DNA of 64,000 bases from Amoebophrya sp. A120. Lineage: Eukaryota; Protista; Dinoflagellata. This document shows positions 1 to 64,000 of the stretch, piece after piece. The first letter of the stretch is position 1; each line of letters starts with the position of its first letter. A program made the translations under genes and the position numbers. The notes beneath the pieces are model-generated. The model saw nothing but the letters and a program-made list of their open reading frames with translations. It was not told where the DNA came from and searched no databases. The stretch spans positions 2,718,089 to 2,782,088 of the forward strand of contig CAJINV010000001.1 of NCBI GenBank assembly GCA_905178155.1, read 5' to 3'.

Positions 1-2587
1 GAGAACCTTGCCTGCAGAACCGCCGGTCGCCACCGGCGGGTACGGAACACGAGCCGAGGCAAGGCCGTGGATGGTGTGCAGCGACGTCCGAGATCACTTG
101 TGCCGCTCGGAGATGCCGCCGTCGCGGGGTTCAAGGCAGAGCACGAAAAGCGCCCGTTCGATGTTGTGGCGTTCGTGAACCGGGAATCTGGGGGGCAAAC
201 CGGAGTAGCGGTCTTGTATGAAGTAGAAGGCGTTATTGCCTGAGAGAGAAGGCCGCGACGCGGTTGTTACGAGCAGGCAGAGCGTGAGCAATAAGCTATT
301 TTGTTCTCAGCTATGTGCCTATCCTTACTACACTACGCGATGCATGTGTCATTCAAAGGGAACGTACTACAGAAGCAACAGCAAGCTGCATTCGACGCTC
401 GAAAGCAAATATTCATTCCTGTTACACTGCTTTATCGCTGTGCTGCCTTCTCTGCAGGAAGTATTTGGAATGAATTAAGCAGCTGATCAACCTACTGGGC
501 GGTGAGCATGTGGTGAACCTCGCCGACCCCGAGGAACCCGCCGCCACCCTCGCGACTTGGGACTACCGGCTAGCGAGCGGTGTTTTCCGGGCCAACCGAG
601 CGAGCGGCGCCTGGTCTAGTGCGGCGTCCAGTCCAGAGCGGGAGAAGAACTTGCTGCAAAATATTAAATCAACCGAGAAGCCTGTACTACACTTTGCCCA
701 AGAGAGTACTAGACCACTGAAAGCGAAAACGAGCAGCCAAGGGTCAATCTCCAAGTCGTCCCCTGCAGCCGTGAAATTCGCTAGCGACGAGGAGAAATTA
801 TACGAAGTGTTTGAAGACGCCGTCGAGCAGCAGTACTACCATTCCGATGATCAAGGTACAGCTACTACCTTTCCGCAAAAACTCTTCCACGACGTCGATC
901 ACGATACTTCATCTCGCGGCATCCGGTTTCTGGTTTGCGGTGGCGATGGGACGGTGAGCTGGATTTTGAGTGAGATCGCGGCTTTCCCCGCACTTTCCGC
1001 GTACCACAATGGCGTTGCGATCTGCCCGCTCGGGACCGGAAACGACCTGGCGAGGAGTCTAGGGTGGGGGAAGGGCTTGCAGCGCTTGGAGGACCTGAAG
1101 CTCTTCCTGGAGTGGACCATGCACGCGGATGCAGTGGAACTTGACCGGTGGTGTTTAGAAGTAGAGCCGGAAGACGAGTTGCCAACCGACCACTGCTTCC
1201 ACCAATTTGAGAACTGTCTGCCGAAACGGGAAGAGGTGAACGATTTTGAACTTGAGAAGGCGTCCTCACCGCTACGCTTCTCTAGTCCGCAGCGGGAAGG
1301 GGAGGAGAATGCTGACAAGGACGAGGATCCATGCAGCACGGCAACGCCGTCCGATACGAGTCGCACGCCCGCGTCCTCGGTCCGAGAGAGGCACGGCAGG
1401 GGCAGTGGGAGTAGTAATAAAGTGGAGCCTGTTCATCTTACTAGCGTGCTTCGTCAAGTAGATCCTGTGTCAGGAACAACCGCTTCCTGGACTAAAAGCC
1501 CTAATCTCGCCTACGCGGTGCCGTTGCCGAAATACCGCGGGTATTTTCACTGCTACTTCTCCATCGGCCTGGATGCGGAAATAGCCTACCACGTGGAACG
1601 GAGCCGCAAACTTTCGGCGGTCGGCCGCCGCTTCTTCCGGGCAGGGCTGGGAAAGTGCTGCTACGGGTGGCATATCAAATCCAAATATGTCTGGGTCTGG
1701 AAGGTTCCGAACTTGTGATGCGTGTTTCGGATCCTACAAAGATCTGTGATGCATAACGTGCAAAAGGTGCCCACTTCTGGCCATGCTGAGAGGGCATTTC
1801 TCATGCAGAATACGCATCACCAAGGACCTGCAGAACCTGTGACGCTAGGCCCTGCATTCCAGACGGGGGGGAGGTTGGAAAAACTGCATGACAAATCTCA
1901 GAATCTCCCAAACCCAGACATTTTTGCATTTGATATGGCAGGGGTTTGCGAAGGTTGGCTGTTTTGCGCGCCAGTTTTGCTGCAACTCGACGCTGCTGTC
2001 CCGGGACGTGCGGATCTTGGAGCCGCCGGTACACAACTCAAGCCACACTTTTGCGTAGTGCGTCATTTGATCAGATCAAATACAAATTGATCTTTCCTTT
2101 TTGTGTAAGTACTGTGAATGTGGTTCTAGAAATCCAGTGCGAACAAACAATGTCACCGGCGTCCTCAACTTCTTTTCAGGTCGAGCAACTGGAAGCTCGG
2201 AAGATTCAAGCGTGCCTCTTGAAAGGTCGTTGCCGCCAGCTCTCCCTGCTGAACATCAACAGCTACGGAAGCGGTGCGCAGGGCGCGCGGGCCGAGACGC
2301 AGAGCGCGCGGGACCAGCATCTGGAGCTCTGCGCCGTGCGGAATCCGGGGTTCGATACGGCGTTGTTTTGCGGGTTGGCGAAGATGCAGGAACTGGAAAA
2401 GGTGCAGCGCTTGACGCTGCACGTGCAGAAACCCGTCTTCATGCAGTACGACGGGGAGGCTTGGTTTCTTCCCTGTCCTTCGGTAATCAGCATATTTCCG
2501 GCGAAGGACGCGGTCCGGCTTCTGCGCGCGCCGCCGGACGCGCCATTTTGGAACAATCGGCAAACGCACGGGTTTTGGGATCAATAG
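1..2587 (+). CDS. Diacylglycerol kinase (5'-partial); exons ~<1-222, 483-1672, 1941-2028, 2180-2587
   Basis: DAGK catalytic motifs VAFVNRESGG (frame from base 1), VCGGDGTVSW and PLGTGNDLARSLGWG; accessory-domain motifs YFSIGLDA, LNINSYGSG and MQYDGEAW. Joined through GT-AG introns 223-482 and 2029-2179 and the TIR element at 1673-1935. Confidence 0.9.
1673..1935. mobile_element. TAT...ATA introner-like element, family A (263 bp), TSD TGGCA
   Basis: 5' TATCAAATCCAAATATGTCTGGGTCTGG and 3' CCAAACCCAGACATTTTTGCATTTGATA; TGGCA at 1668-1672 and 1936-1940; removal gives ...CCYGWQGFAKVG... Confidence 0.93.
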
Positions 2588-3151
2588 GGACTACTTCGAA
2601 ATGTAAGTAAGTAAGCAGTCGTGGTACAACGGAGAAACCACGACAGCAGCGCAGGAAAGTAGTGGAGCGAACTTTTGTCCTCAATCGTGTGAGTTTGAAG
2701 CTTGGAAGTCACATAATCGAGGAGGCTGTAACTGTCTTCTCTGCGTTTGCGCCACACTTTATCGGCTTCGATTGTGCGAGCCCTTTGGTTCTTCACAAGC
2801 GGAAACTACCGATCGAGATTTAATACTTGTTGGGCAACTCAGGATCTCTTGCACTATTGTGAGTAACCCTGTTGGTCTTCAAGAGATATCGATGGTCCGA
2901 AGATTTATGCGCCACGTTTTTTTTTCGAGCTTTGCCAAGGAAGTACGTTGTCGCATTTGTACATCCACGATTTTTACTGACTCCGACGTAGGTCTCCACT
3001 ACGGAATTGACTTCAAGAACCCAATGGCGAGGGAGAATGAGCTAGGGATTATTTCCTTCTGTCTGTTGGAACCGCTACCGCTACTAGCGAAGCACTTAAG
3101 TCGTTGTACAGAGTCGATCTTTTTCCTGTGTTTTTTTTCAAAATTTAAAGT

Positions 3152-6100: not shown

Positions 6101-9100
6101 GAACTACTCCCGAACAGCCTCCGCAACGCCCTGGACAGAACAGCCAGGATAGAAATGCAAATACGGGTGATTCAGATTCAGTCGCTTTACCGGGAAGGAG
6201 TAAAGAAACAAGCTCAAAAATCGCAGCTGCGCCACCCTCCCAACGGCACTTCGAGTTGTTCCAGCGCGCTCTCCCGACCTGGCAAACCGCGAAGCCGTAC
6301 TTTGAGAACCGGGTGTACGTGAAAAAACCGTGCTATGGAAGTGTCAGGTTTGAAATCGACAAAGTTGAAATAATTTCTCATGCATAAATTGCAAGGCATG
6401 AAGTGCCTCTCTTGCAGGGATGGCAAGTGAGGCCGATCGTCAGCCTGTTTGGGGTCTGCGGGAGAGCTGCTAAAGTAGCATGGCAAAAGCCTTCTTCTGT
6501 TCCTAAACAGCATGACAGCCTGGATTTAGACGGTGCCAAAATTTGTCATGCACCGCTCGGAAATTGGACTTCCAACTGGTATCGATTTTCTGCATTTCAA
6601 CTTTGACGATTTCAAGCCTGACACTTGCATACGTGCGTGCAACCGGTGATCGAGAACGCGTGTCTTCATTTTGACCACGTGTACACCGATTCTCTTCCGG
6701 AAAACACGCTTCTGCCCTCCTGCGCGGAACTGCGCCAGCGCGCCTATGTGCGCACGAAACGGTTTCCGAGAAGTAAGAACGCGGAAAAATCTAAATCATC
6801 GTCGAGAAGTGGTGATGGGAATAAAGTTTTTTCGTTTGAAGATTTCCCGCCTTACAAAACCTCCAGCGGCACCAGCAGAGAAACGATCGGGATTGTCACC
6901 AACATGAACCTGCCGGCCAACGTTGGGCACGACATGACATGGTATGTGCCCCTGGCAGAGACGGTGAAGAAAGTGCAAAAACAGGCGAAAGAGTCTGAGA
7001 AGCCGGTAGACATTGAGATCCAGCTCTTCTACCATTACCACTACGGGAATTCGCTGAGCAAGATTTGGCAGCGCACGGTACAGACCGTCGGGAATTACAG
7101 CGAAGCAGTGGACGACGCTGGGGAGGAGGTTGCACTTGGCATAGAAGAACAGGCCGCGCAGACCTTGGAAAAGCTGGAAGAAGTCGCTGGGGCGGAAATA
7201 AAAGCGTCGAGCAGTCCTCCGGAGCTGCTGTCAGAAACTGTGAAGCACCAGATCATTCCGAAATTCGCAAATTTCGTCGAGACCGAAGTGCTACCAAGAA
7301 TCGCTTCCGGGGAGAGAAACGCGTTTTACTATGAGGATTTGTTCAAAAACTTTCTCCAAGACGTGCCCGTGCACCACAGCCTCCACTCCGTCTCCGAAAT
7401 GCGGTGCTACCACAAACTGGTTTGGGGCCGCGGACCCCTGTACAACATGCGACACGCGGTGCAGGCGGGAGTGGTGGCGGTTGGAGGAGAGGGCGATATT
7501 AGAATCAGCGGAAAGATGTTGAACAGCGGAGACGAAATAAAGCCATTCATCTTCGCAGCAACTGATCTTCCGCACGACCAGGAGCATTTATCTGCAGAGG
7601 TAGCGACGGCACAATCTACTTCCGCGCTTGCAACAAGCAGCTTCAATAGCCCGTATTTCCTTGACAACCGCAGCACCACTGTTGCGCGGTTTTACCCCGG
7701 ATTCGAACAAACAACTTCAGCGGCTGCTCCAGGCGGAGCAGACACTAGAGAAATAAAGAAGCACAACGACGAGAATAAAGACCAATCGCCCTTCTTCCCT
7801 TCCAACCTGATCTCCTTTTCCCGCGAGAACGGAGACTATTTCGTTGCCGAGTACCGTGACTACCTGCAAAACTGGGAGTGGAACCCGACCGACCGCAGAG
7901 TCGCGGCCGTGCGCGAGAAACAACCGCTCCTGTGGCAGGCCTCGGTTTGCCCTGTGGACGAGGAAAAGAACCTGGAGACCAATCCGATTGCGCTGGAGGA
8001 CGCGAATATCGGCGAGTACGACCAGGAAGTCCTCCACTCATTCGGGTTTCTCGGGCTCCCACCCAGACCGCTCGTGGATCCGGATATGAGTGTCCAAAGG
8101 GAGTTGGTCGACTCCGAGGCGAATCCGCGCGGCATGCTGCAGGACGACGAACAAAACATGCAGTTGGGCGTGCCGAAGTGCATCCCGGTCCAGACGGACA
8201 ATACGACTTCGTGGAGCTCCCTGGTGGGCGATTTGGACCGAAAAGTGGATGAACTCGCGGTGGCGAGACGGGTGACGGAGAAAGCGACGTACTACGTGCG
8301 CAGCATGCAGTATCCCACGAAAAAAGTGTTACAGTTACACATTTGTTGGAGTTTCTGCGTCACAAATTTTCTCTGTGTGGCAGAGAAAACTTGTAATGCG
8401 AAGATCATCAGGGAAATCAGGAAGGAAACCAGGCTCCCAAGCATCTCCTGCATGAGAAAGGTTGTCTGTGTTGCCGGTCTTGCAGCACACTGTGTAACTG
8501 TAGCACTTTTTTCTTGCGATATGCAGACCTCGCAGTCGAAGAAAACGACGCACATGATGTACGTGCACCCATTGCACCAGGAGCCCGTGTATCCTGTGTA
8601 AAAAGGTCCCCACGTCGACCCCAGAGTTGTCATGCAGATTTGCAATGACAGGCTCGCTTGTAATGCGCTCTCCCATGACAGGCATTGCCAATCGTGTTTT
8701 GCCATTTGTAATGCTGCAAACAGGATCAGCAGACGGATTTGTGATGCGGATGTCCTTGCTGACATGCACTAATACACTGCGAACTGCAACTTGTCATGCG
8801 TGGCTCCCAAAACTTGCGGATTTGTGTTGTTAAGTGTCCAACTTCACTATGGGGTGGGCACGTTTTTACATATGATACCGTGCTGCGGGCCCTCGGCCGG
8901 CAAACCCGGCCGAAGGCGCTGCTGTTCGACCGGCCCGGGGGCTATCCGCGGAGAATTTTGAACTTGGAGGAGCTCGCGCGGTTTTTACTCGCGAAGTTTT
9001 CCACCGTGTTCGACTGGCACATCGTCGCGGGCCTGGAGCAGTTCAGCGGCGCGGACCAGATGCGGCTGTTCGCGCAGTCCTCGTTGGTTGTCGGCGCAGT

Positions 9101-10368: not shown

Positions 10369-13300
10369 ATGGGACGATGGGGCGGACGCAAAGGCCGTGG
10401 CGGAGGAGGTGCGAAGAAAAATAATTTCAAGAATCACTCCCGCGGTCAACACGGGAACCAGAACCAGAAGGGCTCGGGCAAAAATAACAGCGCGGGGAGC
10501 AAGCGAACAAACCATCACCAACACCATGCGAGCAGTAATCAACATGGGTACAACAACTACGGGAAAAATAATAACTACAGGAAGTGGTACACGAACTCTC
10601 CTGGAGACGCCCAGTACGAAGTGCGGAGATTCGCGCTCGGGCTGCACGGTGACGAAAACCAGGAGGCGCCGGACCTCACCCCTCTTCAATGGAATTCGCC
10701 GGCTGAGTACGCGGAGGCGTTTGGTGGGGCCTTGTGCTGGGAGATTTCGGCTCTGGGAAGGAAAGTGTTCAGCGAACCGGGTGCGTCCTCTCCATCCGTG
10801 GACGTGAAATTGGTTAAGGATCCGCACAATGTGACCTCTCACTACAGAGGTAGCATCCAGGACGACTCCAGTGTGTTGCGCCTCTCCGTGCAGCTCGAAC
10901 TCAGTACAGACGCGTACTGGAAGCTCTGGGAGCAGGTCGGACGGGGACGTGGGGTTGCGCCTCAGATAGGGCACGTACTGGACAGTGACTGCTTCTGCCG
11001 ACTAGTCGTGCGCTGTGGGGTGGGAGAGGTACAGCTTTCCGGCTTCATCACGAAGTCGAACTGCGCGCGCCCGACTGATGGAACAGATGTGTCCGGTGCT
11101 GGAAAAGGCAAAGGCAAGGGAGCTGCAGGTCGTGGTGCTGGCCCTTCCTCGTCGTCGTCTATCGGGCCCCCGGTGGTCGGTGCCTCCAGCAGCAAAGCAA
11201 AAAGCATCGACTTGGAATTACTCGCGCGCGTTTTTCCGGAGGGCAAGGCAGTGCTGCAGCGAGAAGCTGCGGCCAGAAAAAACAAAGCGAACAACAAAAC
11301 CTCCGCCGCCGAGGCAAGCAAACCTGCTGGGTTGTTCACGAAACGCGACGCAAATAATCCAAATAATGGGCAGTTCGTGCCGATCTGGTCTGCGGACGGC
11401 GCAGCGGGCGCTTGGGGCGAGGGGGACGTGGAAATGGCGACTGAGCAGGAACAAGAAGGCGATACCACCGAGGAAGAAGAGGATGACGAAACCCCGCCGG
11501 AGGAAGCTGAAGAGGGCGAGGCCGAGCCCCAATATCACTACCTGCCAGGCCCTGCGGAGCTTTCTGCGATTTTCCGTGCAGGTTCGCCGCAACTGCAGCT
11601 TTTGCCGAATAGCAGCGCAAAAAGCCACGTACGAGCGCGGTTAGCCTGTGATAAAGTTCAGAAGGCCACCGCCACAACTGGTTACCAAGTCGCGCAAGAT
11701 CTGGCAATCACGCCTCTAGAAGACTCAACATCGGCGACTGGTGCCAACGCGAACTTTGATGATGAAGCTGCTGCTGCGCACGACGCGCAACTGAGACAAG
11801 ACGTTGACGCGAAACAGATGGCAGCATGGGATGCCTCTGAGAAAGTGAAAGAGCTAGCAGCCATCAAACAAGAAGCGGAGAAGCAACTCGCGGAAATGCA
11901 GAATAAAACTCCGAACGAACAAGAGTTTCTCGCGGAGAATCCTGCGCCGGTATGGGCTACATTTCTTCAAATCCCTGAAGAAAGGATCATCCGTGAACAA
12001 ATTGGAAATGTAAAGTGTGACTCTGGAAAGCACAGCACGCAGACCCGTGCCTGGGTGGTTCAGAACGATCGGACCTACATAGCGTGGTGCCGCGGCCGGC
12101 CTGATCAGAAAGATTGGATGAAGAAACTGCTGGCCTACGACGACCTGGCATCTGGCCGCAAACACTTGACCGCAGTGGTTCTGCTCGAGAAGCGGCAGGA
12201 GGCATTCAGCGAAGCGCAGAAGATATGGAAGGCAGAGCGTGCAGAAATGGCAGAAGCGCTGCGGGCCGAGGCGAAAACAGCTGTTCAAACTGCAGATGAG
12301 AATTTGAAAACCCAAAAGTGCGCCGAGGCTGAGGCCAAGCGCGCGTTGGATGCGGCCCAGGAGGCGCTGGAGGCGAGTGTGATTTCCCAAGATTTGAAGC
12401 GGAAGCGAGAAGACCTGCTAGCGCAGGCTGGTTTAAACGATTCGCAACTCGATGCGATTAGAACGGCGCTGCGGGGACCAGGTGTAACGACTGTGCAAGG
12501 TCCCCCGGGGACGGGGAAAACGCGGACAATCGCGACGCTGGCACAAGTATGCACCGTACGAATATGCTTTGGTCTGGAGAAACGGAGGCTTGAAACTTAG
12601 ATCGTTGCTTTTTTTTTTGCCGCATGCTCGGTGTTTCTTCTTCTTCAGGAATCTGTGATGCATGATTTTTGATCACTGAAAGCAAAGCGCGACCCTGGTG
12701 TCGTGTGCAATTCAGACTTCGCTCGAGCGCTGTGCTGTAGATTGCGTTCCACCACCAGTACTTCATTTGTGGCTGAGTCTACCAGCAGTGCTGGCACAAA
12801 TGAATTCAACGATACGACAAGCCTGCGTCTCTACAACTCCAAACCAGACGTTTTTGCATTGGATATCAAGTCCTGCTGGAAGCGGAACCAACCGCTGAGC
12901 CGACGCCACCATCCTCTTCACCGACCCAGGCCTCCGGACCTGGGCTGGTTTCGCCACGCCAAAAGCTCGATGCGGACGCTGACCGGCCCCCGGGAATCGG
13001 CCGCCTGGCGTCACAGAAAAGTTTCGCGCCGAGACGCGTAGTTTTTACTGCTTCCTCCAATAAAGCGGTTTTCAATATGCTGGAAAAAATCGCGGAAGAG
13101 CAGTCCCGCCTCCCGGACGATCTTCGCTGCCCCGGGACTATCGTGCTTGTGGGAGTGGAGGATAAGGTGCCGGATCACTTGCGTCCCTACTTCGTGCACA
13201 CCCGGTTCGGCGACGTTTTCGAGAACACCGCTGGTGTGGAGGTGGAGGCGGTGCAGCGCCTCGTGCGGGACGCGCCGGACTTCTGCAGCAAGTGGGGTCT

Positions 13301-23749: not shown

Positions 23750-25314
23750 ATGTCGGCCAAGCAGAAAGAGGCCCTGGCGCGCCTTTATGCGAAGCAGCAG
23801 AAGAAGCCCGCGGGCGACATTGCTCCTGCCGCGCCCGCTGCATCCGAACCTCCCAGCGTGGGTGCCGGACCCGCACCCTCCAGCGCCGATCCCTTCAACC
23901 CGGACAACAAGGATAAATGGCAGCATGATGGGTACCAGAATCAGCAGAAAGGGTACTGGAACGGCAACAAGGGCAAGGGCAAGAACGGGAAGGACGACCG
24001 CGAGAACCCCAGCAGCTTTTTCTGGCGGTACTACGACCCGGACTGCGGCATGGCCAAGGCGGAGTGGGAGCGTGAGCGCAAGCGGAAGCGGCAGGAGCGC
24101 CAGGCCATGGAGTACCTCGCGCAGGCCGAGACTATGGGCAGTCTGGAGCCGAAGGCGGTGTTATGGAGAAAAAAAAGTTTGTCAGAGTTACTAACTTGCA
24201 GGCTTTGCATTACAAATTTTCTCAGCATCACAAACTTTCCTTGTATTGCAGAAACACTAGGGAAATCCCTCATGAAGTTTGGCTGTGATGCATTTTTACG
24301 CATGACAAACAATTTTGTATTGCAAGAATGCGCATGAGTGATCGTGACGAACTTTTTTTCTTCGATAGGTGTCCGATGAGGACTACTGGGCGGCGATCTT
24401 CGCCCGGGAGGAGCGTGAGATCAAGATGAAGAGCATCGACGGGTATCAACCGCAAATATGTCTGAGTCTGGAAAGATGCAAGGTTTGTCATGCTCTACCA
24501 GCATGATTCTCAGGTTTGTCATGCAGATCACCCAAATGCTCAATTTTTCTGTCATGCAGAGCCCCAGTTTCTCATGCAGAATAGACAACACCGCAGAAAC
24601 ATGAACATCTCCAAAACTTGTCATGCTTGGCAGCCAATTGAGGCGTGCTCCTCGTTGTCCAACCACCATCACAAGTTTCCAGACCCAGACATATTTGCAA
24701 TGCATAACGGGAACCTGATCTACGGGAAGATTGTGAAGCGCAAGGAGATGTACGACACGACGGTGGAGTTGCAGTTTGACTACGACAAAAACGCGAAGTT
24801 CAAAAAGAAGACGCGGACCGAGGACCACGATATGCAGCAGCAGCGGAGCAAGATCGAGCTGCCGCAACGGATGCAGCAGTCAGAATTTCTCGGCTGGGGG
24901 CGGTCGTCGAACCGGGCGAAGGGCGACTGGGACCACTTGAGCAAGGACAAGATGAAGGGCGCCATGAACCGGGATCGCGACGACGACAGTCCGCGGTTCG
25001 GGAAATCCAAGGGCAAGGGAAAGCGCGGCGGTTCGCGGTCTCGGTCCCGCGGACGTGGCGACGGAAAGGGAGGCTCGTCCTACGGTGGCGGCGCGTCCTC
25101 GTCTTCGCGACCCTGGGGCGGGGATAGTAACAATTACCGGGGGCGGGGAGACCACTACAACGCGGGTCCCTGGGACGATCGCAAGGGCGGCAAGGGGAAA
25201 GGCGGGTACGGCGACGGTGGCAAGGGGGACAGTAGTTCTTACAGCCGGCCTGCGACAAATCACGACAACGCGCTCGAGAGCCACATGGGCGAAATCACAC
25301 TAGACGATCTGTGA
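23750..25314 (+). CDS. Uncharacterised protein with RGG/RS-rich low-complexity C-terminus (probable RNA-binding protein); exons ~23750-24161, 24373-24443, 24712-25314
   Basis: Frame continuous (KAVSDEDYWAAIFAREEREIKMKSIDGNLIYGK) after removing two TIR elements; RGG/GKG/RSRS tail. Confidence 0.75.
24162..24367. mobile_element. TAT...ATA introner-like element, family C-like (206 bp), TSD GGTGT
   Basis: 5' TATGGAGAAAAAAAAGTTTGTCA and 3' TGACGAACTTTTTTTCTTCGATA; GGTGT at 24157-24161 and 24368-24372. Confidence 0.88.
24444..24706. mobile_element. TAT...ATA introner-like element, family A (263 bp), TSD ACGGG
   Basis: 5' TATCAACCGCAAATATGTCTGAGTCTGGAA and 3' TTCCAGACCCAGACATATTTGCAATGCATA; ACGGG at 24439-24443 and 24707-24711. 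Confidence 0.92.
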
Positions 25315-39700: not shown

Positions 39701-39817
39701 GAGGCCAACGACCCGGCAAATTTCGCCTACACGGGCTACGCCCTGGTGTACTTCACCGCGATGCTCTTCCAGTTGATCTGCGCGCTCTTGGTTTTCAAGG
39801 TGAAAGGAAGCACCTGA
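33794..39817 (+). CDS. Major facilitator superfamily (MFS) transporter, 11 exons
   Basis: The reconstructed protein has motif A GKLSDRCRSVYGKRRPY, IIADLVSPEQRGEASG, GALSDRPGYGRKR and AVDYALALDTLP. It is interrupted by seven TIR-element introns and three GT-AG introns (34381-34531, 38675-38835, 39323-39486). Confidence 0.92.
33932..34183. mobile_element. TAT...ATA introner-like element, family A (252 bp), TSD AACAC/AACCC
   Basis: 5' TATCAAATGCAAAAATGTCTGGGTCTGGAA and 3' TTCCAGACCCAGACATTTTTACATTTGATA. Confidence 0.92.
34584..34848. mobile_element. TAT...ATA introner-like element, family A (265 bp), TSD GTGCC
   Basis: 5' TATGAAATGCAAATATGTCTGGGTCTGGAAG and 3' CTTCCAGACCCAGACATTTTTCCATTTGATA; removal gives QLVCPPLGKLSDR. 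Confidence 0.93.
34925..35556. mobile_element. Family A introner-like element (outer) containing a nested element, TSD TGTTC/TGCTC
   Basis: 5' TATCAACTGCGAAGATAATGTCTGGGTCTGG; the 3' TIR CCGGACACAGACATGTGATTTGCACTGCAT..A is split by the inner element; removal gives RRPYMTMF|TFPTIFAFF. Confidence 0.87.
35228..35550. mobile_element. Nested TAT...ATA element, family E (323 bp), TSD TGCAT
   Basis: 5' TATCAAGAGGAAAAATCCCCCCTCCCCA and 3' TGGGGAGGGGGGATTTTTCCTTTCGATA; TGCAT at 35223-35227 and 35551-35555. Confidence 0.9.
35785..35997. mobile_element. TAT...ATA introner-like element, family B (213 bp), TSD CTTCT
   Basis: 5' TATCTTGCGTAAAAACGT and 3' ACGTTTTTACACATGATA; CTTCT at 35780-35784 and 35998-36002; removal gives LAGNFCLQSVAY. 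Confidence 0.9.
36119..37724. mobile_element. Non-autonomous foldback/MITE-like DNA transposon with TTA TSD (PIF/Harbinger-like signature), 1606 bp
   Basis: Termini GAGCGGGGTAACAAACTCCAAAAGAGTAGTTGCAGG... and ...CCTGCAACTACTCTTTTGGAGTTTGTTACCCCGCTC; TTA at 36116-36118 and 37725-37727; imperfect inverted arms of roughly 600 bp; no transposase ORF. Confidence 0.85.
36151..36198. repeat. Perfect 48-bp palindrome (second copy at 37645-37692)
   Basis: CAGGCCAACTTCTCATCCACCCGG-CCGGGTGGATGAGAAGTTGGCCTG is self-complementary and identical in both arms. Confidence 0.95.
37983..38261. mobile_element. Degenerate family A introner-like element (279 bp), TSD GAAGA/AAGGA
   Basis: 5' TATGCATTGCAAATTTATCTGGTTCTGG and 3' CCAGACCCAAAGATTATATTTGCACCTGATA; removal gives AKLW[E/K]EFLDCF. 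Confidence 0.82.
38965..39269. mobile_element. Family B introner-like element (305 bp), TSD TTGAG/TTGAA
   Basis: 5' TATTACATGGAAAAATGTCCCCACCCCC and 3' GGGGATGGGGGCACTTTTCACTGCGATA; removal gives KQSVL[S/N]FLHSIEDP. Confidence 0.85.
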
Positions 39818-42800
39818 TAAGCTGTACTACTGGGGAACAGTTGCAAGATCACACGGAAGATGCAGGTGGACCACCGGAACTGGCTTTGAATACCATCAAG
39901 ACGTGCAAGTAGGTACCACGTCGCGGAGCTTTTTTTGGGCATGGAGGTCGCTGTGGACTTCCAAAAGACGAGAACTAATTGCAGAACTTCCGGATGACCA
40001 CGATGAGGCATCTTCGGCAGGGACCGACGTGTGGTACTAGTCCGTCAAGCCGTTTTTCGCACATTCCGAGCCGGCGATGCAGTACGACATTGTGCGATGG
40101 GAGCTGACTTCTACGCAGGACGTGGCTGTCGGGCCGCAGGATATTGACAAGGAAGAAGCAGTCTCGAGCACCCTGCTGCGCAACTGATGAGAAAGCACAG
40201 AAAGCTGCACAAGGCAGCTTGCAACTTGCGTCAAGAAGAACAGCGGGCAATATGGCTCTGGTAGCGGATTTTGACATTGAATGGAGGTGGTGGAGTCCGC
40301 GCGCGCGGTTCGCGCGACCAGGCGAGTTGCACATGCCACTACAGGCCACTTTGATGTAGCTTCGTTCGTGTGGCGTCGCCTTTGAGCCCACTTCAATCGA
40401 AAAACATTGAATAACTGTACCCTATCACAGAGCTTGTGCTTCTTAATGAGTTTGCTTCTGCTCCTCTTTGCCTTGCGTATTTTCCGCTATTAAGACAACG
40501 AATTTTGGGTATGCTCATTCGCAGCACAAACTGGGCAACTGGAACTACATACTTCGAAGACACGACTGAAAGAAGATAGACAGACGAGTAGATGGGACCG
40601 CGAGCTACAACAAGAAGTAGTCAGAACATGTCGGATGAAGAACTTTGAAAAAAATTGAAGTCCTCTCTCAGTAGAAAAACTCAGGATGATTTTCTACGAG
40701 AATGCACAGGACGAGGATGCCAGAAGAATTGAACCTCGCCATGAGTGTGAGTTGCAGCTGTTCTATTCAAAGAAGCTATTAGTGTTTTCTGTGGGGGGAG
40801 CCGAGTGCTAACGTGTTGCGTTTCGCCAACACACTTTTCTCACTTACGCCGCTGCGATATGGAAAGCGTTCCCAGACCCATGTAAGGGGCGATGAGCTTA
40901 CAGCACAAATCAACGAAGAAACGAGATGAGCGAACCAGTTGGAGGAGGAAGCCACACCCTACGTGTGGCTCCTTTTCTCATCGTGTGTGAGTGAGTGCAT
41001 TGATCTCATAGTAGTGAAAAAAGCTACTTACTTAGATAGAATACTGCGAGCGCTTTTTCGAAAAGTCAGCCTCTTCGACTGCAGTGATTGCGTTGAATTG
41101 TAGGAGTATTGCGGTTCGTGGCCGCCTCGGCGCCGACTAACGAGCGGAAGTGTTTGCGTTGTCCGTTTCGACACGGCGCGGCCTGCGTTCGCAGATGGCG
41201 AGCAATTTCATGGCTGTCCCGAGCGCCTTGGCGTTAGATGCCAATATCTTCGCAACGGAGCCGCCCAAGAGGACGCCGCCCGGCCGTCGCGCCTTCGTTC
41301 CCGGATGCGGGAGCCTGCGGGCGCCACCGCTGTGCTCTTCCCCGTGGCAGCCCCTTCGGCGCTTGCCGCCCGGGGCTGGGCTCGGCTCGCCGCCTTGCGG
41401 GCCTTCCCTAACGACGGAGCCGCAGGAGCGCGCAGGCACGCCAGTCCTAATGGGCCGGCTGGGCGCAGCAGGTGCGGACCAGCGGACTCAGCCCCGTGGG
41501 GCTCCGCGGCCGCCTCGTTTCCCAACGAGGGGCCCGCGCCTCGCCGTCCCGCCTGCGTGGCTGGCGCGTCCCTGTCAGCTCCTCGGTGTAAGCATGTAAT
41601 AGTAAGCGTTGCGCTTGCGCCTGGTTCGTTTTGTCAGAGGTGAGCCCAGGTAGACGAGTGATGCGCCGCCGCGCTTTGGTGTGTGAGCGTCGCCGTCGCT
41701 GGCCGAACGGCTGACGCATGACGGACGTCGTCCTGCTGCACTCATTGGTTTTGTTCGATTGTCGGACCTGCCGTGCGCCCGCTTCAAATCATCGCCCTGG
41801 TCGTTTCTGCCTGGTCCGAGTTTTTGGCGCCAGTGGCTGCGGTGTTCACACGTTATCAGACGTTTTTTCAGAAAAACAGAATCCTTGCCAAGTGTGCCGG
41901 GCCATATTTTCAATGCCTAGCTGCAATGAGGGCGCGCCGGTGTGAGATTTAGCAAGGCTATGAGAGCTGACGCACAACGTCGACGTCAGGCATTATCGGG
42001 GCGACGTATGTCTGTGCAATTGCGGCTCATATTATGCATAGCTCGGCGAGACTTGCCGTGATTTGTCTGAGAGTCATTACAAGACCCCAGCATTAGATTT
42101 GGATGTGGCTGACTGCTGCAGCGAGCATGAGCGAATGAATTATAGTAAGTGTCGACGAGGGCAAGAAACGACCTTTTGAGTCGTGTATGGAGACGGTAGT
42201 AACAGCTGTTGCAAGAAACTGCTGGGTGTGGACGTTCGCGTCCGGATGTATCACGATCTATCAGGAATACTTATCTGTCTGATGGAACAAGAGAAAAAGC
42301 TGCGCGGCATCAACTAGCGAGCAGACACAAACATGCGCAATCATGGTGGTTCATCGGCTTGAGTTGTTCGTTGGGTTGTCCCTACAGCTTCGCAACTGCG
42401 AGACGAGCCGCGAGTGGCGGCCGTGGGTTTTGCCAACGAACTGCGCCGCTGGATGTTGGCGCCTTTTTGGCGCCTCCCGCGATGGCCGGCGACATCCCGG
42501 CCGGTTGCTTTTGGCCGGGGCAAAAAACGCAAACGCGGAAATTGAGTTGGACGCGACAACTAATGTTGTGTTCGACGAATGGCCAGGAGATAGACGACGC
42601 CGGGGCCATTCAGGTGCGCCGTCTCTTCGCCGCTCTGTCTGTGTACTTAGTCGCCGCGCCGCGTACGGCCGCGGTTTTGTTGCCTGTAGCAGGACAAAGG
42701 CAGCGCCTGCCACCGCCGGGGCGTGTGCCTTTTCGCCAGGGGTCTCCGGCATCCGGCGCAGGGGGGCAGGGCCCAATACTCCCGCCGGCCCTTCCGCGGA

Positions 42801-47800: not shown

Positions 47801-50800
47801 CGGCCCGACACCGACCGGTTCGGCGTGCGTCGTTGGTGCGAGACCCGTCGGGCCGAATCAGTTTCATTTCGGCAGCGGACTTCCGCAGGGTGGGAACGAC
47901 CGGCGGACTCCTGGGGAGTAGTAACAGCCAAGACACGAGCCCCAGTTTGACGGGCGCGTCGCCCCTCCACACGACCAAAAGCGGTTCCGGCACGGGGTCG
48001 GAGAGCATGCCACTCTCGGCCTACCGCAGAGGGTCAATTTTCAAGGGCGTGAAAAAAATCGAGGACCTTGGGCTGGGCGATCGGGGGATCCCGCTCTTCC
48101 AGAACAAAGCCAAGCGGTTGTCAATCGAGGAAGGGAAAACGTTGAAAGCGTTGCAAAAGTCCGACTCGCTACTGTCAGATGTCGAGGAGGACGAGGATGT
48201 GGATGTTGCGGGAAACAAGAAGAGCGCTGAAACAAAAAAGGACCTCGCGGACGATACAGAGGAAAATCGAAAAGGCGACTCGGAGAAGTCTAAGTCAAAA
48301 ACGACCGCGACCGGTGAAAGCAGAGGACTAGTGGTTGCTGAGAACAAAGAGAGCACGTTATTTTCCTCACCGGCAGGAGCTTCATCCGACACAGACGCAA
48401 AATCAAGCTCCGCACCTCTTTTCCCAGCGGATCAGAAAGTGATGAAAACCTCTACCCCAGCAGAAGAAGACTTAGTACGCCTGCTCCCAGTCGTGGCACA
48501 AGCCGTGTTGCAGAAGATCTACGCGGATTACGCGTTAAGCGCAATCCGCCTCGAGAACCAGGTCAACGTAAGCCGCCAGCCACGCCGCAGCAGTTTGAAA
48601 TCATCCTCCTCCGTTACGACCGGGGGAGCGAGTGCAGGACCTCCGACATCCTCTCGCCGCTTGTCCGTCACCTTGACGGACACTCCGCCCGACCAACAGA
48701 CGTTTCTCGTGGACAAGCGGGAGACCGAGCAATTCGAAGATAACGGCGAGGAGAGCTATAAAAACGATTCATATAGTTATAGTATTAGTAAGAAAAATAC
48801 ATCGAGGCCGCAGCGCATCAAACTGGCGATGAAGGCGACATTGATGATGGAAGGCGATGAGTTGGAAGACGAAGACGAGGAACAACAACAAACTGGGGGT
48901 GCAGCTTCTCTCAATGCAAGCGGAAAAAATCTGCAAAATTATCCCGACAAGAGTGCGAGCAGCTCCTCGGCAGGCGAGACCAGCCAGAGCGACCGGGATT
49001 ACAATTCTACTAATGTGAACAAGAACTATGCTTCTTCCCGATTCTCTGCGAAGTCGCCGGACGACCGGGTGAAGCAAATTTCGCGACAGCTCCGTCGGCG
49101 TTTGCAGAGCGCTGTGATGGACCGCGCCAAGGACGGGCGGTGGGATCGAAAGACCACGTTTTTCGGACGGCGGTCCACCGAACGGGGTGTGAACCCGCGG
49201 GATTTAGGGGAGATGTTCCACGTGCGCTACTTTACGTTCGTCATGCACTTCCCGGAGGCGAAGTTGCTGATCGACCGACTGGCGTGGCAGCACGAGAAAA
49301 AGGGCCGCATGCTATCGGAGGAAAATCTCGAAGGCGTTTTTGAAGAAGTGCAGTCCGCGTTGTCCGGGCTGCTGCTGGGGTATGTGAAAGGTATTTACTA
49401 ATTAGTGCTGTTTGGTCGTGTTCATCGAGTGCAGTCAATATGCTGACGTTGATTGTGTTTGTGTCTTGCTGCCATGCGTGGCTAGCTGCTATGGTAGATG
49501 TAGATCTTTGTGCAAAAATCCCCAATTTTTATCGATCCGAAAAATCCAGATGCTCTGGAAGCCCAGACGTCTCAGAAGAAGCAGGCGAGCACGGAGAGCG
49601 TGCGTGCGGACCGGTGTGTAGATTTTCTGATGGAGGTCGGACTTCACCCCCTGGTCGAGGAAGAGGAGAAAATATTGAAGGAAACCCTGCACAAATACCT
49701 GCGCCTGAACCTCATGCCATCCACGGCGTCGGGAACGACTGGTGCGTTTTCGCTGGCGGGAATAGGAGGTACAAACATGCTTGGAGGTGCTGGATCAAGT
49801 AGTCCTCCTGGCGCGGGTGGCGGGAACAATACGAAATCAATTTTTAGTGACACTAGTCCGAGTTCTTCTACCAGTCCGACTGGGATCATGATGAACAGGC
49901 CGAATGGGACGAATGGCAACCGCGGCGGGGACCAAAATACCAATTCGATTTTCTCACCCTCAAATTCTGGCGCGAACAAAAACGGCGGGCTGACGTTGAG
50001 CAGCCCAAATCATGGAGCAGGTGGAACCAATGGAACTGCTTCGCCCTCAAAGAACAGTTTTTTCGCCGGCGGTTTCGATGCTGTGAACCGTAGGAATTCC
50101 ACGAACGCGAAGGCACTGTCGAAGGCGCTTCCGTACGAAATTCTGCGGAAAATCCATATGCAGCCGAGTGACGTGGTGAAAGTAGTTATCCTGAGAAAAA
50201 AGTGCTACAGTTACACACTCTGATGGAAGACAAGCAAGACAGATAAACTCTGTCATGCAGGAAATGCGTGCCACCCTCATTTCATTCGTGTTTTCGCCTT
50301 ATAGTCTGCGCAACACAGGTTTTCTTTGCCATGTCGAGCAGCTTTGTGATGCAGAAAGTCCAACAAATGTGTAACTGTATGTAACACTTTTTTCCTGTGA
50401 TAGTAGTGAAGGAGACACTGGAAAACTTCCAAGCCGTCTATGACGACCAGAAAACCAAGGTGATTGAGGACTACGACCTGAACAAACAAGTTTTACCCAC
50501 GTTCCAACGCGGCGGGGCCGCGAGTTCCTTCTCCCCGACTTCGTCCAGGCCGTGCTCGCCGATGGGAATAGTTGGTGGGCCGTTCTCACCAGGGAGTGCT
50601 GGTGGTGGTAGTTTATCGAGCGAGGACGAGACGCACATGCTCCGAGACTTGTTGGAGCTGTACAAAGCTTTTTGCGCCATGGACACGGGGAAATGCGGCG
50701 TTCTAGCGGGCAAGCAGCTGGACTCGCTGTCCAGAACGGTGTTCGGCGAGAACCGAGCGGCCAAACAGAAGTATCTGCACAATGTGACACAGGTAGATCT

Positions 50801-56158: not shown

Positions 56159-58971
56159 ATGACGGTCTTGTCGGACAACTTCACTCCGCGTTCGACACAT
56201 TCGTCGAAAAACGCGAATCATTCCGCGAAATCGACACCTCGCGGCAGTACCGCTTCACACTATGGGGACGAGAGTATACACGGCACTCCTGCAGCAGGTG
56301 TTGGACCTGCCACTGGTGGAGGATTCCAAAGAAGCATGTCCAACCACAGCATTGCGTCGTCGATTCACGGGAGTGAGCAGCACGCTGTCGACAGAACGCC
56401 TGCGGCTGTTGTAAACAATGCGAACGATGATCTTCAGGGAGACAGTAGCAAGCCACTGGGCAGTGGTGACGGGACGATCTGTACACCGACAGAAACTACA
56501 GGACCTGGGTCAGTGACCACGAGGACACCTGTAGTTGCTTCCACCCCGATCACGTCCTCTGTACTACCAACCCCGTCGTCGGCACCAGCTCCTTCCAGTA
56601 GCAGCAAGCAATCCTCGTTACCGGTAATCAGTGCTCCCACGACACGCCCCCTCATCTCCTGCCAGGGGTGCGGGAAACAGACCACGTCCGAAATGTGCTG
56701 CCCCACGTGCAACCAGTTTGGGAGGCAAAGCTTCTTCTGCACGCAGGACTGCTTCAAGAAGAACTGGAACGTGCACAAACGGCTTCACACCCTCCTGCAG
56801 CAACAGAAAGAGCTGGCGGAGAGCGAAACGGCGAGCCTGGCCTCGGACATGGCGGCCACGTCGCCAGACCACCGGTCCGAGGGACTGATGAAGCGGGGCT
56901 TGTCGCAATTACGCGACAAGGTTTTCTATCAAGTGCAAAAATCTCTGGGTCTGGAAACTTGTGATGCTGGGTGGCGTCTCATGATGAGGCTACAGATGCT
57001 GGCTCAGCATGACAAGTTTCTGAGCTCCTAGGTATTGCCTATTCTGCATGACAAAGTGCGCTTCTGCATCGCAGAAAAACGGAGCTCTTGGGTCACGTGC
57101 ATGACAGATTTAAATGTCATGCCAGACAAGCATGACAAACATGAATTCTTCCAGACCCAGACATTTTTACATTTGATATTTTCCACCAAAGCAGCAGCTC
57201 GTCCTTGTCGGTGCAGAAAAAAACGTCTTACGCCTCGCGGAGTTCCAGCAACAGCAGTAGTGTGAATGAGGAAGATCCGCAAATGGCCAATACTATCGAC
57301 GGAGAAGACGATTCCAAGAATTCGAAACCGCTGTCCACCATGTTTGGAAAATTGTTGTCTTCACAGCCCTTCTTGAACAATTTGGTGCAGCAGCTCCCGC
57401 TTTCCTCCATAAGCGTTTCGCCGTCCCGGGGTCCGAGCAAGCGCGGGCTGTTGCCAGGCGGGGGCGGGATGCAGAGTGGTGTGCACAGCCAGCAATTGAA
57501 TCACGCGGTTCTTTCGTCTGGGGCGTCCGGAGGAGGACACCAGAGTTCATACAAGCCGGGCGCTTTGGCGGCTGCCTGGAACTCTAGTAGTGACCCGGGC
57601 GGCGGGGGTGGAACGGCGTTTTCTGGTTCGCATCACGGACCGTCCAATTCAGGGAAAGTGCAAGATGTTGCAACCTCCCTACCTACTTCCCCAGCGCAGG
57701 TGTGCGCAATGGTGTTCTCTTGCTTCCTCGGCCTACCGCGCTTGCTGAAGATGCTGCTTTTTGCCTGTCTTTTCGTCTTCCTCACCATCGCCTACATCAC
57801 GCGTCGGCTCGCATCGCCAGAGATGAACGGAGCACTCGGGTCGGCGCCGGTGGGAGCGCCGATCCAGGATAACGCGAGCGCGCGGAAAGGCGCGGGCGTG
57901 TCCTTTCACCACGACCACGGCTGGACAATGGAGGACCTAGCAGAGCATCTGGAGGAGCACGAAAGAAGAATAGAGCAGCTAGAAGCCGCCCTGGCGAACT
58001 ACGAAAATGCAGGCTCGTCTTCCGGTGGAGCGTCCGTGAACGCAAGTCCCTTTGCAGCAGTCGGCAGCATTAGTGGAAGCAAAAGTAATACTCGGCCGGA
58101 AATCAGTGTGACTCCCGCTTCTTTTGCCGCGCCAGCGAGTAGTTCTCCTTCACTTGTTGTAGGTGGATCCTCCAACAGTAACATAGGCGCGGTCGTGTCG
58201 GTAGCTTCAGCAGCGAATTCTGCTGTTCGGAGTTCGACTAGTAGCGGTAACGCAGCAAGCTTTTCAGCAGAGGAGACCCAGCCTTCCGAGGGAAGCAAGC
58301 CTACGTCAGGTGAGGCCACTGGATTCGCTACTGCGCAGCAAATGAACGACATGTTCGCAGCCGTGGGTTCGCCAGCGCAGAAGACGGCTGCGGCTGCTAC
58401 TGGAGCGGTAGGACCGAACTCCGGTACAACTGCGGGAGTGGGAAACCAAGCTCCAAGCATTTTGGCTGGCACCTCCATGCCGGCGTTCGCAGCTTCGCCC
58501 GAGCCTTCGTTTTCTGAGCCGAAGGACGGTAGAGCGCCTGGCGACCCCTTTGTTGCTAATGGCCCTGCTGCTAACGGAGACGCATTCACTGCCACGAACC
58601 AGGTACAACTCATGCAACGTTGATGCGTCGAGTCGATCTTCCAAAGAAGGATGATGCAGCAAATCATTCGAATAAAAAGCGTGCGACACCAAAATGGCCA
58701 AAACTTAAGGAACCACGGATAATTAATCTCTCAGGTGCAACAGCAACGAGATGGGCCGGATTCGGCGTCCATTGGGAAGGCCATGCCCGAGGAGCAACCG
58801 TCATCATTTATGCAGGGCGGAGGTGAGCAAGAAACAGAAAATCGAAAGGCAGGAGGCACAGATGAGCACGAAAATCATCACCGCGGACTCGGATTGCCGA
58901 GACGAGAGAGTCCTGGACATTCTGACGAAAGTAGTGCATCGAATGACAGTCCAGGACAAGACAGGTTTTAA
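56159..58971 (+). CDS. zf-C6H2 (MetAP1-type, MYND-like) zinc-finger protein with a transmembrane helix and coiled coil; exons ~56159-56926, 57184-58602, 58735-58971
   Basis: CQGCGKQTTSEMCCPTCNQFGRQSFFCTQDCFKKNWNVHKRLH; TM MLLFACLFVFLTIAYIT; frame restored across the element at 56927-57178 and the GT-AG intron at 58603-58734. Confidence 0.78.
56927..57178. mobile_element. TAT...ATA introner-like element, family A (252 bp), TSD TTTTC
   Basis: 5' TATCAAGTGCAAAAATCTCTGGGTCTGGAA and 3' TTCCAGACCCAGACATTTTTACATTTGATA; TTTTC at 56922-56926 and 57179-57183; reverse-complement near-copy of 33932-34183. Confidence 0.93.
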
Positions 58972-60629
58972 GATGTGCGTTTCGAAGCGAGGAGCAACCC
59001 CACCACACATGAAAGAAAGACCGCGCTCTGCTTTCTCGAATTCACAGCGCTCAGGTTGTGTTTTTGATTCATTGTAGGTATGGCTTGAGCAAGGACTCTA
59101 CAGTACTGATGTGTTCTAACGCATGAGTGTTGTGATATGTAAATCATTGCCCTACGACGTTTGCGTTGTCTTGGATTCAGATGGGATTTGAGATGGGAGC
59201 GTTGAAGGAGGCTCTCCTTTTCTTGAGCGTCTCAAAAGGTTGCAACGACAGCTAAGCATGTATGTGTACCTGAGTGACTTCAGCGGTAAACTGCGTTCAG
59301 CTGGCTTCGGTGCGACTTCGTCACAACGTTAGAGATAGTGTCTACGGCTACCGAAAGAAGTTAGTAAAGAAATTCATATTCATTAGTTTCTTCTCGCGGA
59401 CGAGGTTCCATAGTTGGACGATTGGTATAACGTTCCACTCTTCATGTTCATCCGTAGGCATCGTCTGCCTATGAAAATTTCGAGCGAAGTTGAGTCAAAA
59501 GAGCGAGCACAAGACATACGAAGTTCTTCTTCGTGTTCGTTACATACCATCGTGCACAACGCAGACATGTGCTACTCGTGTGAATGCGCTCTATGCAGCA
59601 GCTGCATTGCTAGCATCAAAAATGGACGGAGGGCTGTTGTATGATTTACGCCCGCCGAAGCTGCTGCCGGCGGAGTGGCGCGCACGTGGCGCCGGTTTTC
59701 CTCATCCGGGGGAGCGCCGCCCAAGAAGAGTAGTCTCATCAAGACTTAAACAGCCTCCGTCACAATGCCGGCGGCGGGGCAAGCAGAAGCAAGAGGAGAG
59801 CGGCGCGCAGCCCGCCCCGGCCTTCGAAGTCTTCCAGAGGTTGGGGGCCCTCCCGCGGCGCCCTCCCCAAGCCGTGGCGCCCCCTCTGGGCGAAGTGGGT
59901 CGCCCTCGAATGGTAGCGCCCCATGTTATTGCCGGCACCCCCGGACGGGGCCAGGGCGGCCCGTCCCCCGGGCTGCCTCGTACGCGCCCCCCCCCCCCGT
60001 GGGGGGTTCTGCAGCCGCCCGCCCGGCTGGTGGTGGCTTCCAATCTTCCTCGGTCGTGTGGTCATCCGGAGGGCGCGCGCGGCCGTGTGCGTTTTGGGCG
60101 GGGGGGCTGCCCGGGGGCCCTGAGGCACCTGCACGCCGCACTGGTCGCAGTATATAATGAATGGAATCTGTTGCAGTCTGGGCGCCGTTTTATTGCCTTT
60201 ATTGGGAAAGCGGCTGCCCGGTGCCGGTGTTGGCCGCATCCCGGACTTGCGGGACCGGTATAGCAGTTGCATCTCTCGACCTTGTCATTGGTGCGACAGA
60301 CAAAGTTTAACAGTGCCCCTCCTGGAAGGGAGATTGTGTTTGTGCCAGCTGCTGGCGTAATATGACGAAGGTGCGCGTGGGAGTGTTTGGAGGGAACAGT
60401 AAAACACAAGGCCAAACGCAAACGAAGTTCAATGCTAGCGTGCACTGGCCTGCCTGAGAAAACAATGAGAGACAAACGAGTTGGAGTTGAAAAGTATTGG
60501 AGGGCGTAGACTTGCGTGTTCAACGACTCTATTTCGGAATCTGTGAGGGTATCTTTGTCGTTCTTTGTGATCGTGAAAGCACGTGTGAAGAAATCCAACG
60601 AGTTTCTTGCCAGCACCATCTCTGTTTGA

Positions 60630-63330: not shown

Positions 63331-63549
63331 GCCTGTCACGGATTCTCGCACACACGCAAACTCGTGGGACACTTACGACATCGCTACTCCGCAGAACAAC
63401 AAAACATACCGAGAAAAGATGGCGGACGTAAGTACTTTTTTCGATGCGGCGCACTCCTTGAGCGATTGTTTCTGTAAATATGTTTTCTTTTGTACTTCGA
63501 ACTAGTTTTCCAGTTTAAGGAAGTTTAAGTTTGACTCATCTGCAACGCA

Positions 63550-63850
63550 GTGAGCAAACTGAAATCAAGCGCGAACCTGAAAATAAAATCTTACCCCACC
63601 GAACAGATGCAGAAGGAGCGGAACCAGCAGGTGCGGCAGTACATCCGCGACGAAGCGGAGCAAAAGTACACGATCATCACTTTGGAGGAGAACCTGCAGG
63701 ACAAGATCCGCAAGCTGCGCGCGGCGCACGCGGAGATCGCCCGGCTGCAGGAGATCCTCCGAAAGAACGGGCTGGAGGCCGAGGTCGTGCGGGGGTGCCG
63801 CTACAATTCCGTCGGGGCCATCGACGAGGAAGTGGTCCCGGAGGAGGAGG
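63550..63850 (+). CDS. Partial coiled-coil protein exon, interrupted by an element and continuing beyond the window
   Basis: GC3-rich ORF EQMQKERNQQVRQYIRDEAE...LQDKIRKLRAAHAEIARLQEIL; the 5' end is unresolved. Confidence 0.6.
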
Positions 63851-64000
63851 TATGGATTGCAAATATGTCTGGGTCCGAAAGATTCCGAGATTTGTCACGC
63901 AGTTTTTCCAAGCTCCGCCAAGGCTGGAATGCAGGGCATAGCATCACAGGTTCTGCATCTGCAGCTCGTTGGTGATACCTATTCTGCATGAGAAATGGTC
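63851..64000. mobile_element. Family A introner-like element truncated by the window end (left flank GGAGG)
   Basis: TATGGATTGCAAATATGTCTGGGTCCG; the body is the reverse complement of the 3' part of the element at 1673-1935. Confidence 0.85.

Follow-up and report, generated by a model that had tools for sequence, protein, structure and literature searches.

We consider it reasonably probable that the introners which interrupt the coding exons of the marine parasite Amoebophrya sp. A120 are removed by a relaxed spliceosome that, in place of GT-AG, reads T and A at the second and third intron positions (+2 and +3) and an A seven positions from the intron end (−7). The proposal comes from a window of 64,000 nucleotides (nt) of the A120 genome (contig CAJINV010000001.1, positions 2,718,089 to 2,782,088 of the forward strand), which contains 21 elements with terminal inverted repeats (TIRs) and flanking 5-bp target-site duplications (TSDs), and from related elements in a second assembly. 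The elements themselves are known, having been described as A120 introners by Farhat et al. (2021; PMC7789003), and what is new here is the splice register together with a strand-dependent constraint on three terminal bases. In the available parts of that paper, A120 introners are described as having inverted repeats made of TAT, seven loose bases and at least three A, direct repeats of 3–5 nt and a length of about 240 nt; they number 29,850 copies, and non-canonical introns make up more than 60 % of the A120 total. The elements of the window share with this description the organism, the TAT followed by seven loose bases and three A, the direct repeat lying over the borders and the RNA-supported non-canonical ends, and differ in the single register and three constrained bases inferred here. 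The same parts of the paper treat the border position as unknown or variable and offer no mechanism; its figures S19–S25 may show more. A first reading of the window, made from the letters without database searches (hereafter the sequence-only reading), had already placed the elements in a class reported for Amoebophrya, and this assignment is borne out by a host protein identical to an A120 record (see below) and by ends and repeats that match PMC7789003.

An automated scan for TAT...ATA elements whose termini pair and whose flanks carry a 5-bp repeat, run at a loose cut-off (TIR score of 6) with which 20 dinucleotide-model controls yielded 0–4 hits each, retrieved 16 elements with TIR scores of 11–23, and five further decayed or cut copies were added by motif search and reading. 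The total of 21 comprises 19 complete elements inserted directly into host sequence (host-level elements), one nested copy and one copy truncated by the end of the window, distributed over 10 of the 13 plus-strand genes (delimited by reading), with none in the approximately 17 kb of the window that lie beyond gene spans. All 21 begin with TAT and a single one ends in ACA (at 31468); among the 41 TIR ends, T, A and T occupy positions 1–3 in 41, 40 and 41 cases, and A occupies positions 11–13 in 36, 38 and 40. Interior similarity between copies is 69–89 %, so that the elements are repeated in families, and the depth of the DNA-type run X1 is 14,000–92,000 over element bins compared with about 45 on the flanks, values that do not represent a copy number. 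Of the 19 host-level elements, 13 have an exact 5-bp duplication, and the two copies differ by one mismatch in four elements, by two in the element that starts at 37983 and by three in that at 32115. Thus, the counts of the sequence-only reading (21 elements, 10 of 13 genes, TAT starts, one ACA end) were reproduced, and the 5-bp duplication that it ascribed to the elements holds exactly for these 13 and has diverged in the other six.

Sliding the junction through the duplication permits a GT, GC or GA donor with an AG acceptor in only three of the 19 host-level elements (24162, 36057 and 37983), the very three named in the sequence-only reading, and in none at the register proposed below. Removal of the element plus 5 nt gives the longest open run, compared with plus 4 or plus 6, at all 11 sites that lie in genes other than DAGK and MFS, with a marginal difference at 27910 (114 versus 113 codons); the script chose wrong frames at 1673 and 37983, which lie in those two genes, and there the spliced models equal public proteins. 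The claim that deletion of an element with one TSD copy restores the open reading frame (ORF) was therefore upheld.

The transcript evidence consists of the contig sets X3–X6, which come from one sample and were classed as RNA by guess; contigs of this kind hide rare isoforms, and they are possibly not independent of the published annotation. Between 27800 and 39900, all 10 host-level elements are skipped together with exactly 5 nt in four of four runs. The skips measure 343 nt for 27910..28247 (338 + 5), 307 nt for 31167..31468 (302 + 5), 261 nt for 32115..32370 (256 + 5), 257 nt for 33932..34183 (252 + 5), 270 nt for 34584..34848 (265 + 5), 637 nt for 34925..35556 (632 + 5), 218 nt for 35785..35997 (213 + 5), 1823 nt for 36057..37874 (1818 + 5), 284 nt for 37983..38261 (279 + 5) and 310 nt for 38965..39269 (305 + 5). 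The same contigs also skip five GT-AG introns, and none of the 15 joints listed for this interval makes use of a cryptic GT-AG pair. In record 16 of X6, the sum of the joints leaves 1087 letters between 34380 and 39486, and the contig coordinates show nothing inserted. Removal of the element plus 5 nt is supported indirectly at two more sites, namely 1673..1935 in the DAGK gene (family 1, exact TSD), where an RNA-type contig of X3 carries, from 1667 to 2179, just the 92 letters predicted and the gene model equals the protein P0005, and 8311..8521 (exact TSD), where an RNA-type piece ends at 8304. The latter element has a GT..AG pair 1 nt off, the use of which was rejected because the piece ends at 8304 and not at 8309. 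Joint support is thus direct for 10 and indirect for two of the 19 host-level elements; the other seven start at 6334, 8590, 12548, 24162, 24444, 50187 and 56927, and the joint table of the interval 1–15800 is swamped by repeat-derived joints of X1 and hence has no rows for the first three of them. The precise loss of element plus one TSD that had been predicted is accordingly found in the contig joints, with non-canonical ends, whereas the two outcomes that had been set against it are not: no element is retained in the contigs examined, and the contig end at 8311 does not fit cryptic GT-AG splicing. Furthermore, the elements are removed in both orientations, as seen for the oppositely oriented 27910 and 31167 (75 % interior identity; exact TSDs in both) and for 33932 and 34584 (the latter with an exact TSD), both of family 1, which implies that the signals sit in the symmetric ends.

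The position of the cut within the duplication can be read only where the two TSD copies differ, because an exact repeat lets the joint slide. Denoting by k the number of bases of the upstream TSD copy that are retained in the mRNA, five elements with a diverged TSD and an RNA joint are informative: k may be 3 or 4 at 32115 (an old element with a weak TIR and a TSD identity of 2/5), 4 or 5 at 33932 (mismatch at TSD position 4), 3–5 at 34925 (family 1; mismatch at position 3), 3–5 at 37983 (family 1 with slipped TIRs; mismatches at positions 1 and 3) and 0–4 at 38965 (mismatch at position 5). The only value common to the five is k = 4, with which all eight mismatched bases agree, and we therefore infer a fixed register in which the cuts fall 1 nt upstream of TAT and 4 nt downstream of ATA, such that the intron would read N-TAT...ATA-NNNN. 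Under random registers, the probability of this agreement is P = 0.023 for k = 4 and P = 0.13 for any one shared value. Given k = 4, T is found at +2 and A at +3 in 19 of 19 elements of the window. In Table S4 of PMC7789003, to the extent available, all nine predominant classes of A120 splice sites have T as the second base (GT-AC, CT-AG, AT-AG, GT-CG and others), and these N-T starts agree with k = 4, in a table that may be coloured by aligner preferences; all nine predominant A25 classes begin with TT, and the A25 inverted repeat starts with TTA.

An exact search with 30 bases of the TIR returned 128 loci, all in one other public assembly (JACKZZ contigs), the elements of which belong to the same families (identity up to 94 %). 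Among the 391 candidates collected there, 256 have an exact 5-bp repeat, three a 4-bp repeat and none a 6-bp repeat, as counted with a candidate finder that gave preference to whichever partner matched best over 5 bp. Seventeen candidates have one change in a terminal triplet, of which one (L044) was dropped, its start being ambiguous by 2 nt. The host strand was called by the coding score of the element-free sequence; since local calling was correct at 14 of the 19 window sites, margin and locus filters and whole-ORF scores were used instead. At the 5' end of the intron, all seven changes affect the third base and leave TA intact. At the 3' end, eight of nine fall on the last two bases and spare the first A of ATA, and the one exception is the element whose strand call is weakest. 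The asymmetry between the two ends yields p = 0.0014 in a Fisher test, and 6/0 versus 0/6 among the 12 firm strand calls (p = 0.0022), and no such asymmetry is seen at TIR positions 4–16 of the JACKZZ elements. The ACA end of the window (31468) fits the 3' pattern. Transposition is blind to the host strand, and simple pairing offers no explanation either, because 12 of the 17 variants break the terminal pair; the 5' TGT variant, which would keep a wobble pair, was never seen. At k = 4, the kept bases would be T at +2, A at +3 and A at −7, that is, a code of the form N-TA...A-N6.

The scenario that we propose would begin with the spread of the elements as non-autonomous TIR DNA transposons that generate a 5-bp duplication, as their observed anatomy suggests. 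Each element would then leave the transcript in either orientation with 5 nt, as in the contigs, through the fixed cut that the five informative elements point to, and codons would be restored as a consequence of the removal of one duplication's worth of bases. The symmetric TIR would provide both signals whichever way the element is inserted, and selection would hold only T+2, A+3 and A−7, as the 17 variants suggest. The A at −7, which is the first A of ATA, is the predicted branch point, the acceptor presumably being chosen by its distance from the branch; the end hairpin would help to bring the ends together, especially in young copies, and would not be required.

In canonical splicing, U6 and Prp8 read intron positions +2 and +3. 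The RNA-supported canonical donors of the window are GTA in seven of eight cases, and the TA kept in the elements corresponds to a GTA donor without its G. The first intron of the DAGK gene (216..475 or 215..474, plus strand), which is defined by an RNA-type piece that begins at 475 and by a join present in P0005, combines a GTA donor and an A at −7 with the lack of an AG acceptor and of a TIR, and this hybrid intron is counted in favour of the relaxed spliceosome. Nearly all spliceosome proteins are reported to be present in A120 in the available text of PMC7789003. Whether the relaxation is complete, such that the spliceosome no longer uses G+1 or an AG acceptor and is guided by N-TA...A-N6 alone, with a ruler-set acceptor, the TT introns of A25 being an independent use of the N-TA donor, is in our estimate an evenly balanced question.

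Several observations weigh against the relaxed spliceosome. The register derives from five elements, with P = 0.13 for any shared register; a codon-likelihood test of the exonic TSD copy in the JACKZZ assembly gave no signal, nor did stop codons. The asymmetry of the ends was seen in 16 elements of the JACKZZ assembly, the host strand of each having been assigned from codon scores alone. In the k = 4 register, the bases at the two extremes of the intron take many combinations and appear to be free of constraint, although splicing normally requires a non-Watson-Crick pair between them, according to the consulted portion of PMC13326754. In the JACKZZ assembly, there is no pull to G+1 (42/186; 55/213) or to a 3' AG, GT-AG occurs at k = 4 in 3 of 230 cases, and a GT, GC or GA donor with an AG acceptor is found in 13 of 186. 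No branch-site consensus surrounds the A at −7, and an A is found at this position in four of seven canonical introns; both the branch at A−7 and a lariat route of excision are predictions only. The U1 small nuclear RNA (snRNA) was not detected in A120, as far as the available text of PMC7789003 goes. Finally, predicted end hairpins are strong in 15 of the 18 elements scored (z of −2.1 to −9.0).

Several of these points can be read in favour of a separate, euglenid-like endonuclease-ligase, which would recognise the paired ends, cut at a set distance beyond the stem (1 nt at the 5' end, 4 nt at the 3' end) and release a circular or linear RNA. Such a machine would account for removal in either orientation, for the strong end stems of most elements, for the free first and last bases with no pull to GT or AG, and for the apparent lack of U1 snRNA (PMC7789003, available text). 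The nonconventional introns of euglenids are also a close parallel: they have a MITE-like origin (MITE, miniature inverted-repeat transposable element), paired ends, TSD-like repeats, no GT-AG and a 3' spacer longer than the 5' one, and in the genetically defined Euglena code, N3CDG / CH'GN5-6|R, the N3 spacer on one side of a paired motif is likewise shorter than the N5-6 spacer on the other (PMC12501133, PMC11282704, in the parts available). The euglenid introns, however, require a purine at the exon start and are excised as circles (PMC12501133), whereas the elements here have the form N-TA / A-N6, do not carry the CAG/CTG motif, their ends being N-TAT and ATA-N4, and are followed by A, C, G or T as the first exon base. 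Moreover, pairing appears dispensable in old copies, given that end pairing is predicted to be weak or lacking in three elements with RNA-supported exact removal, namely 32115 (z −0.4), 37983 (z −0.7) and 34925 (split TIR). The terminal variants that break the pair, the absence of the 5' TGT wobble variant and the match of the kept bases to the canonical GTA donor also argue against recognition of paired ends, as does the hybrid intron 216–475, because hybrids are reported to be rare in Euglena in the same portion of PMC12501133. The sequence-only reading had proposed a structure-guided excision system separate from the spliceosome; precise, non-canonical removal was the part of it that stood, whereas the three elements with weak or no end pairing and the 12 pair-breaking variants weigh against guidance by structure. 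We regard such a system as unlikely, albeit worth keeping in view, and favour the relaxed spliceosome over it.

Alternatively, individual elements, or even individual molecules, might differ in where the duplication is cut, the shared register being a coincidence of five cases with no simple code behind it. The chance that five random registers share some value, the legend of Fig. 3 in PMC7789003 (available text), which calls the splice sites variable relative to the hairpin, and the loss of rare variants from contigs all speak for this possibility; however, the shared value is k = 4, the register indicated by the N-T starts of Table S4, for which P = 0.023, and strand-dependent conservation of three terminal bases needs fixed positions, so that we consider a variable cut improbable. 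Editing of the ends to GT-AG before splicing, or excision at the DNA level with transcripts coming from empty alleles, is very improbable: possible editing is reported at 2–4 % of intron boundaries (PMC7789003, available part), much too seldom to account for a share of non-canonical introns above 60 %, and the DNA-type run X1, the evidence of which is confined to 1–15800 and thus lies outside 27800–39900, continues across the junctions into the elements and shows no alternative letters there, one contig covering the entire 12548 element.

Two further comparisons bear on the relaxed spliceosome. Fritillaria borealis also has TIR- and TSD-bearing introns derived from transposable elements, and there removal is attributed to a modified major spliceosome, with preferred ends AG-AC and AG-AT, U1 retained and U2AF duplicated (PMC13326754, PMC11282704, in the parts available), whereas in A120 neither terminal base seems to be constrained and no U1 snRNA was detected. 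A fixed spacing between the branch A and the acceptor is known from Yarrowia, Trichomonas and Giardia, where it amounts to 6 or 8 nt (our own count from the published consensus; PMC2483917, available part), compared with the 7 nt proposed here; these species keep a strong branch consensus and AG, and the elements have neither.

With TIRs and a TSD of fixed length, the elements have the anatomy of MITEs. They share with Ginger/Copia-related MITEs the TIRs, the 5-bp TSD, the lack of coding capacity and a repeated subterminal motif (PMC12130899, available part). The motif here, TGTnATGC, occurs (both strands) 56 times in 5.5 kb of elements and twice in the 58 kb outside, and is likely a transposase-binding repeat common to several families; the old element 32115 has no copy of it. 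No transposase was found for the elements of the window, the sole long candidate ORF being that of a 2459-bp copy (L032:476–2934) with family-1 TIRs and an exact 5-bp repeat, whose product of 415 amino acids (aa) had no Pfam or Atlas match; this copy is a candidate for one that is autonomous or carries cargo. The available part of PMC12130899 describes, for A120, a TIR family that has Copia/Gypsy-like ORFs and is said to lack Ginger termini and TSDs, and this family is a plausible source of the 5-bp duplications.

The remaining elements add detail to this inventory. Those at 6334..6631 and 8590..8877 have exact TSDs and were supported by the scan, TSD comparison and the open-run test; 12548..12865, a decayed family-1 copy in a superfamily 1 (SF1) helicase gene with a mismatch at TSD position 1, was recovered by motif search and supported by the open-run test. 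Both 24162..24367, for which a GT-AG placement is possible, and 24444..24706 (family 1) have exact TSDs and were supported by the scan and the open-run test, whereas 50187..50402 (exact TSD, orientation opposite to 8311) and 56927..57178 (family 1, 89 % identical to 33932 in reversed orientation) were additionally supported by similarity. The left part of a family-1 copy, found by motif search and reading, runs from 63851 to the end of the window at 64000. The element at 35785 has an exact TSD. In 34925..35556, the right TIR is split by the nested copy 35228..35550, which lies 1 nt before the end of the outer copy and has its own exact TSD; the arrangement is twintron-like, in that the duplication of the inner copy rebuilds the terminal ATA of the outer one and all 637 nt are removed precisely. 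The 36057 copy, with an exact TSD, consists of a 209-bp element and an insert of 1606 bp (36119..37724), an unrelated long inverted-repeat element with TTA on both flanks, inverted arms of 131 nt at 94 % identity, further arms and internal palindromes, which we take to be PIF/Harbinger-like judging by the 3-bp flank; its start (TTA, then purines) is similar to the published A25 inverted-repeat motif. A solitary right-end-like motif without a partner lies at about 30040–30071, where RNA-type contigs read through unspliced. The long GC-rich intergenic tracts at 40000–44700 and 59600–63300 contain no TAT...ATA elements, and two related stretches near 60700–61950 and 62000–63300 resemble duplicated repeat units.

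Among the host genes, the MFS transporter gene (33794..39818, plus strand; Pfam MFS_1) contains seven host-level elements and three GT-AG introns, and all 10 joints are present in the contigs. One of its exons matches the proteins P0001 (Amoebophrya sp. A120, 100 %), P0002 and P0003 (A25); the spliced model of 582 aa is letter for letter P0001, and P0002 and P0003 are gapless at six of the seven insertion points, the remaining (first) one lying in a badly aligned N-terminus. The DAGK model 3' of the first intron (563 aa) is likewise identical to P0005, and nine DAGK homologues are colinear across the 1673 site. The first DAGK intron ends in AT (or reads TG..AA if placed one base further to the left), a CTGCAG 18 nt upstream would create an in-frame stop, and the intron is possibly an old introner or a hybrid. 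Seven of the approximately 13 GT-AG introns counted in the sequence-only reading are RNA-supported, whereas this one does not qualify, having no AG acceptor. Alternative GT donors, 6 nt apart (30402/30408–30567), are each used in different RNA-type runs. Tandem SF1 (AAA_11/AAA_12) helicase paralogues occupy 10369–15650 and 16544–21340, with an element in the first only. All 13 genes of the window are on the plus strand, in agreement with the unidirectional clusters reported for Amoebophrya.

Neither the register nor the strand constraint was found in the open literature, including the available parts of PMC11282704, PMC11453091 and PMC12005148; subscription papers, figures and PNAS datasets lay outside this search and might already contain the register. 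The portions consulted of PMC7789003, PMC11282704 and PMC11453091 leave open by what route over 60 % of the introns of A120 are lost from transcripts without GT-AG, and the relaxed spliceosome makes base-level predictions about it: a 5' end 1 nt before TAT, a 3' end 4 nt after ATA and a branch at the first A of ATA. With such a rule, thousands of intron borders that are ambiguous in the annotation of A120 would be settled. If it is true, any transposon with TAT ends is a ready-made, orientation-free intron, and owing to this property tens of thousands of copies could have entered coding exons with the codons unchanged. A spliceosome that ignores both terminal bases, or else a second, euglenid-like machine, would in either case bear on the limits to which the active site can be relaxed and on the ways in which transposons become harmless introns.

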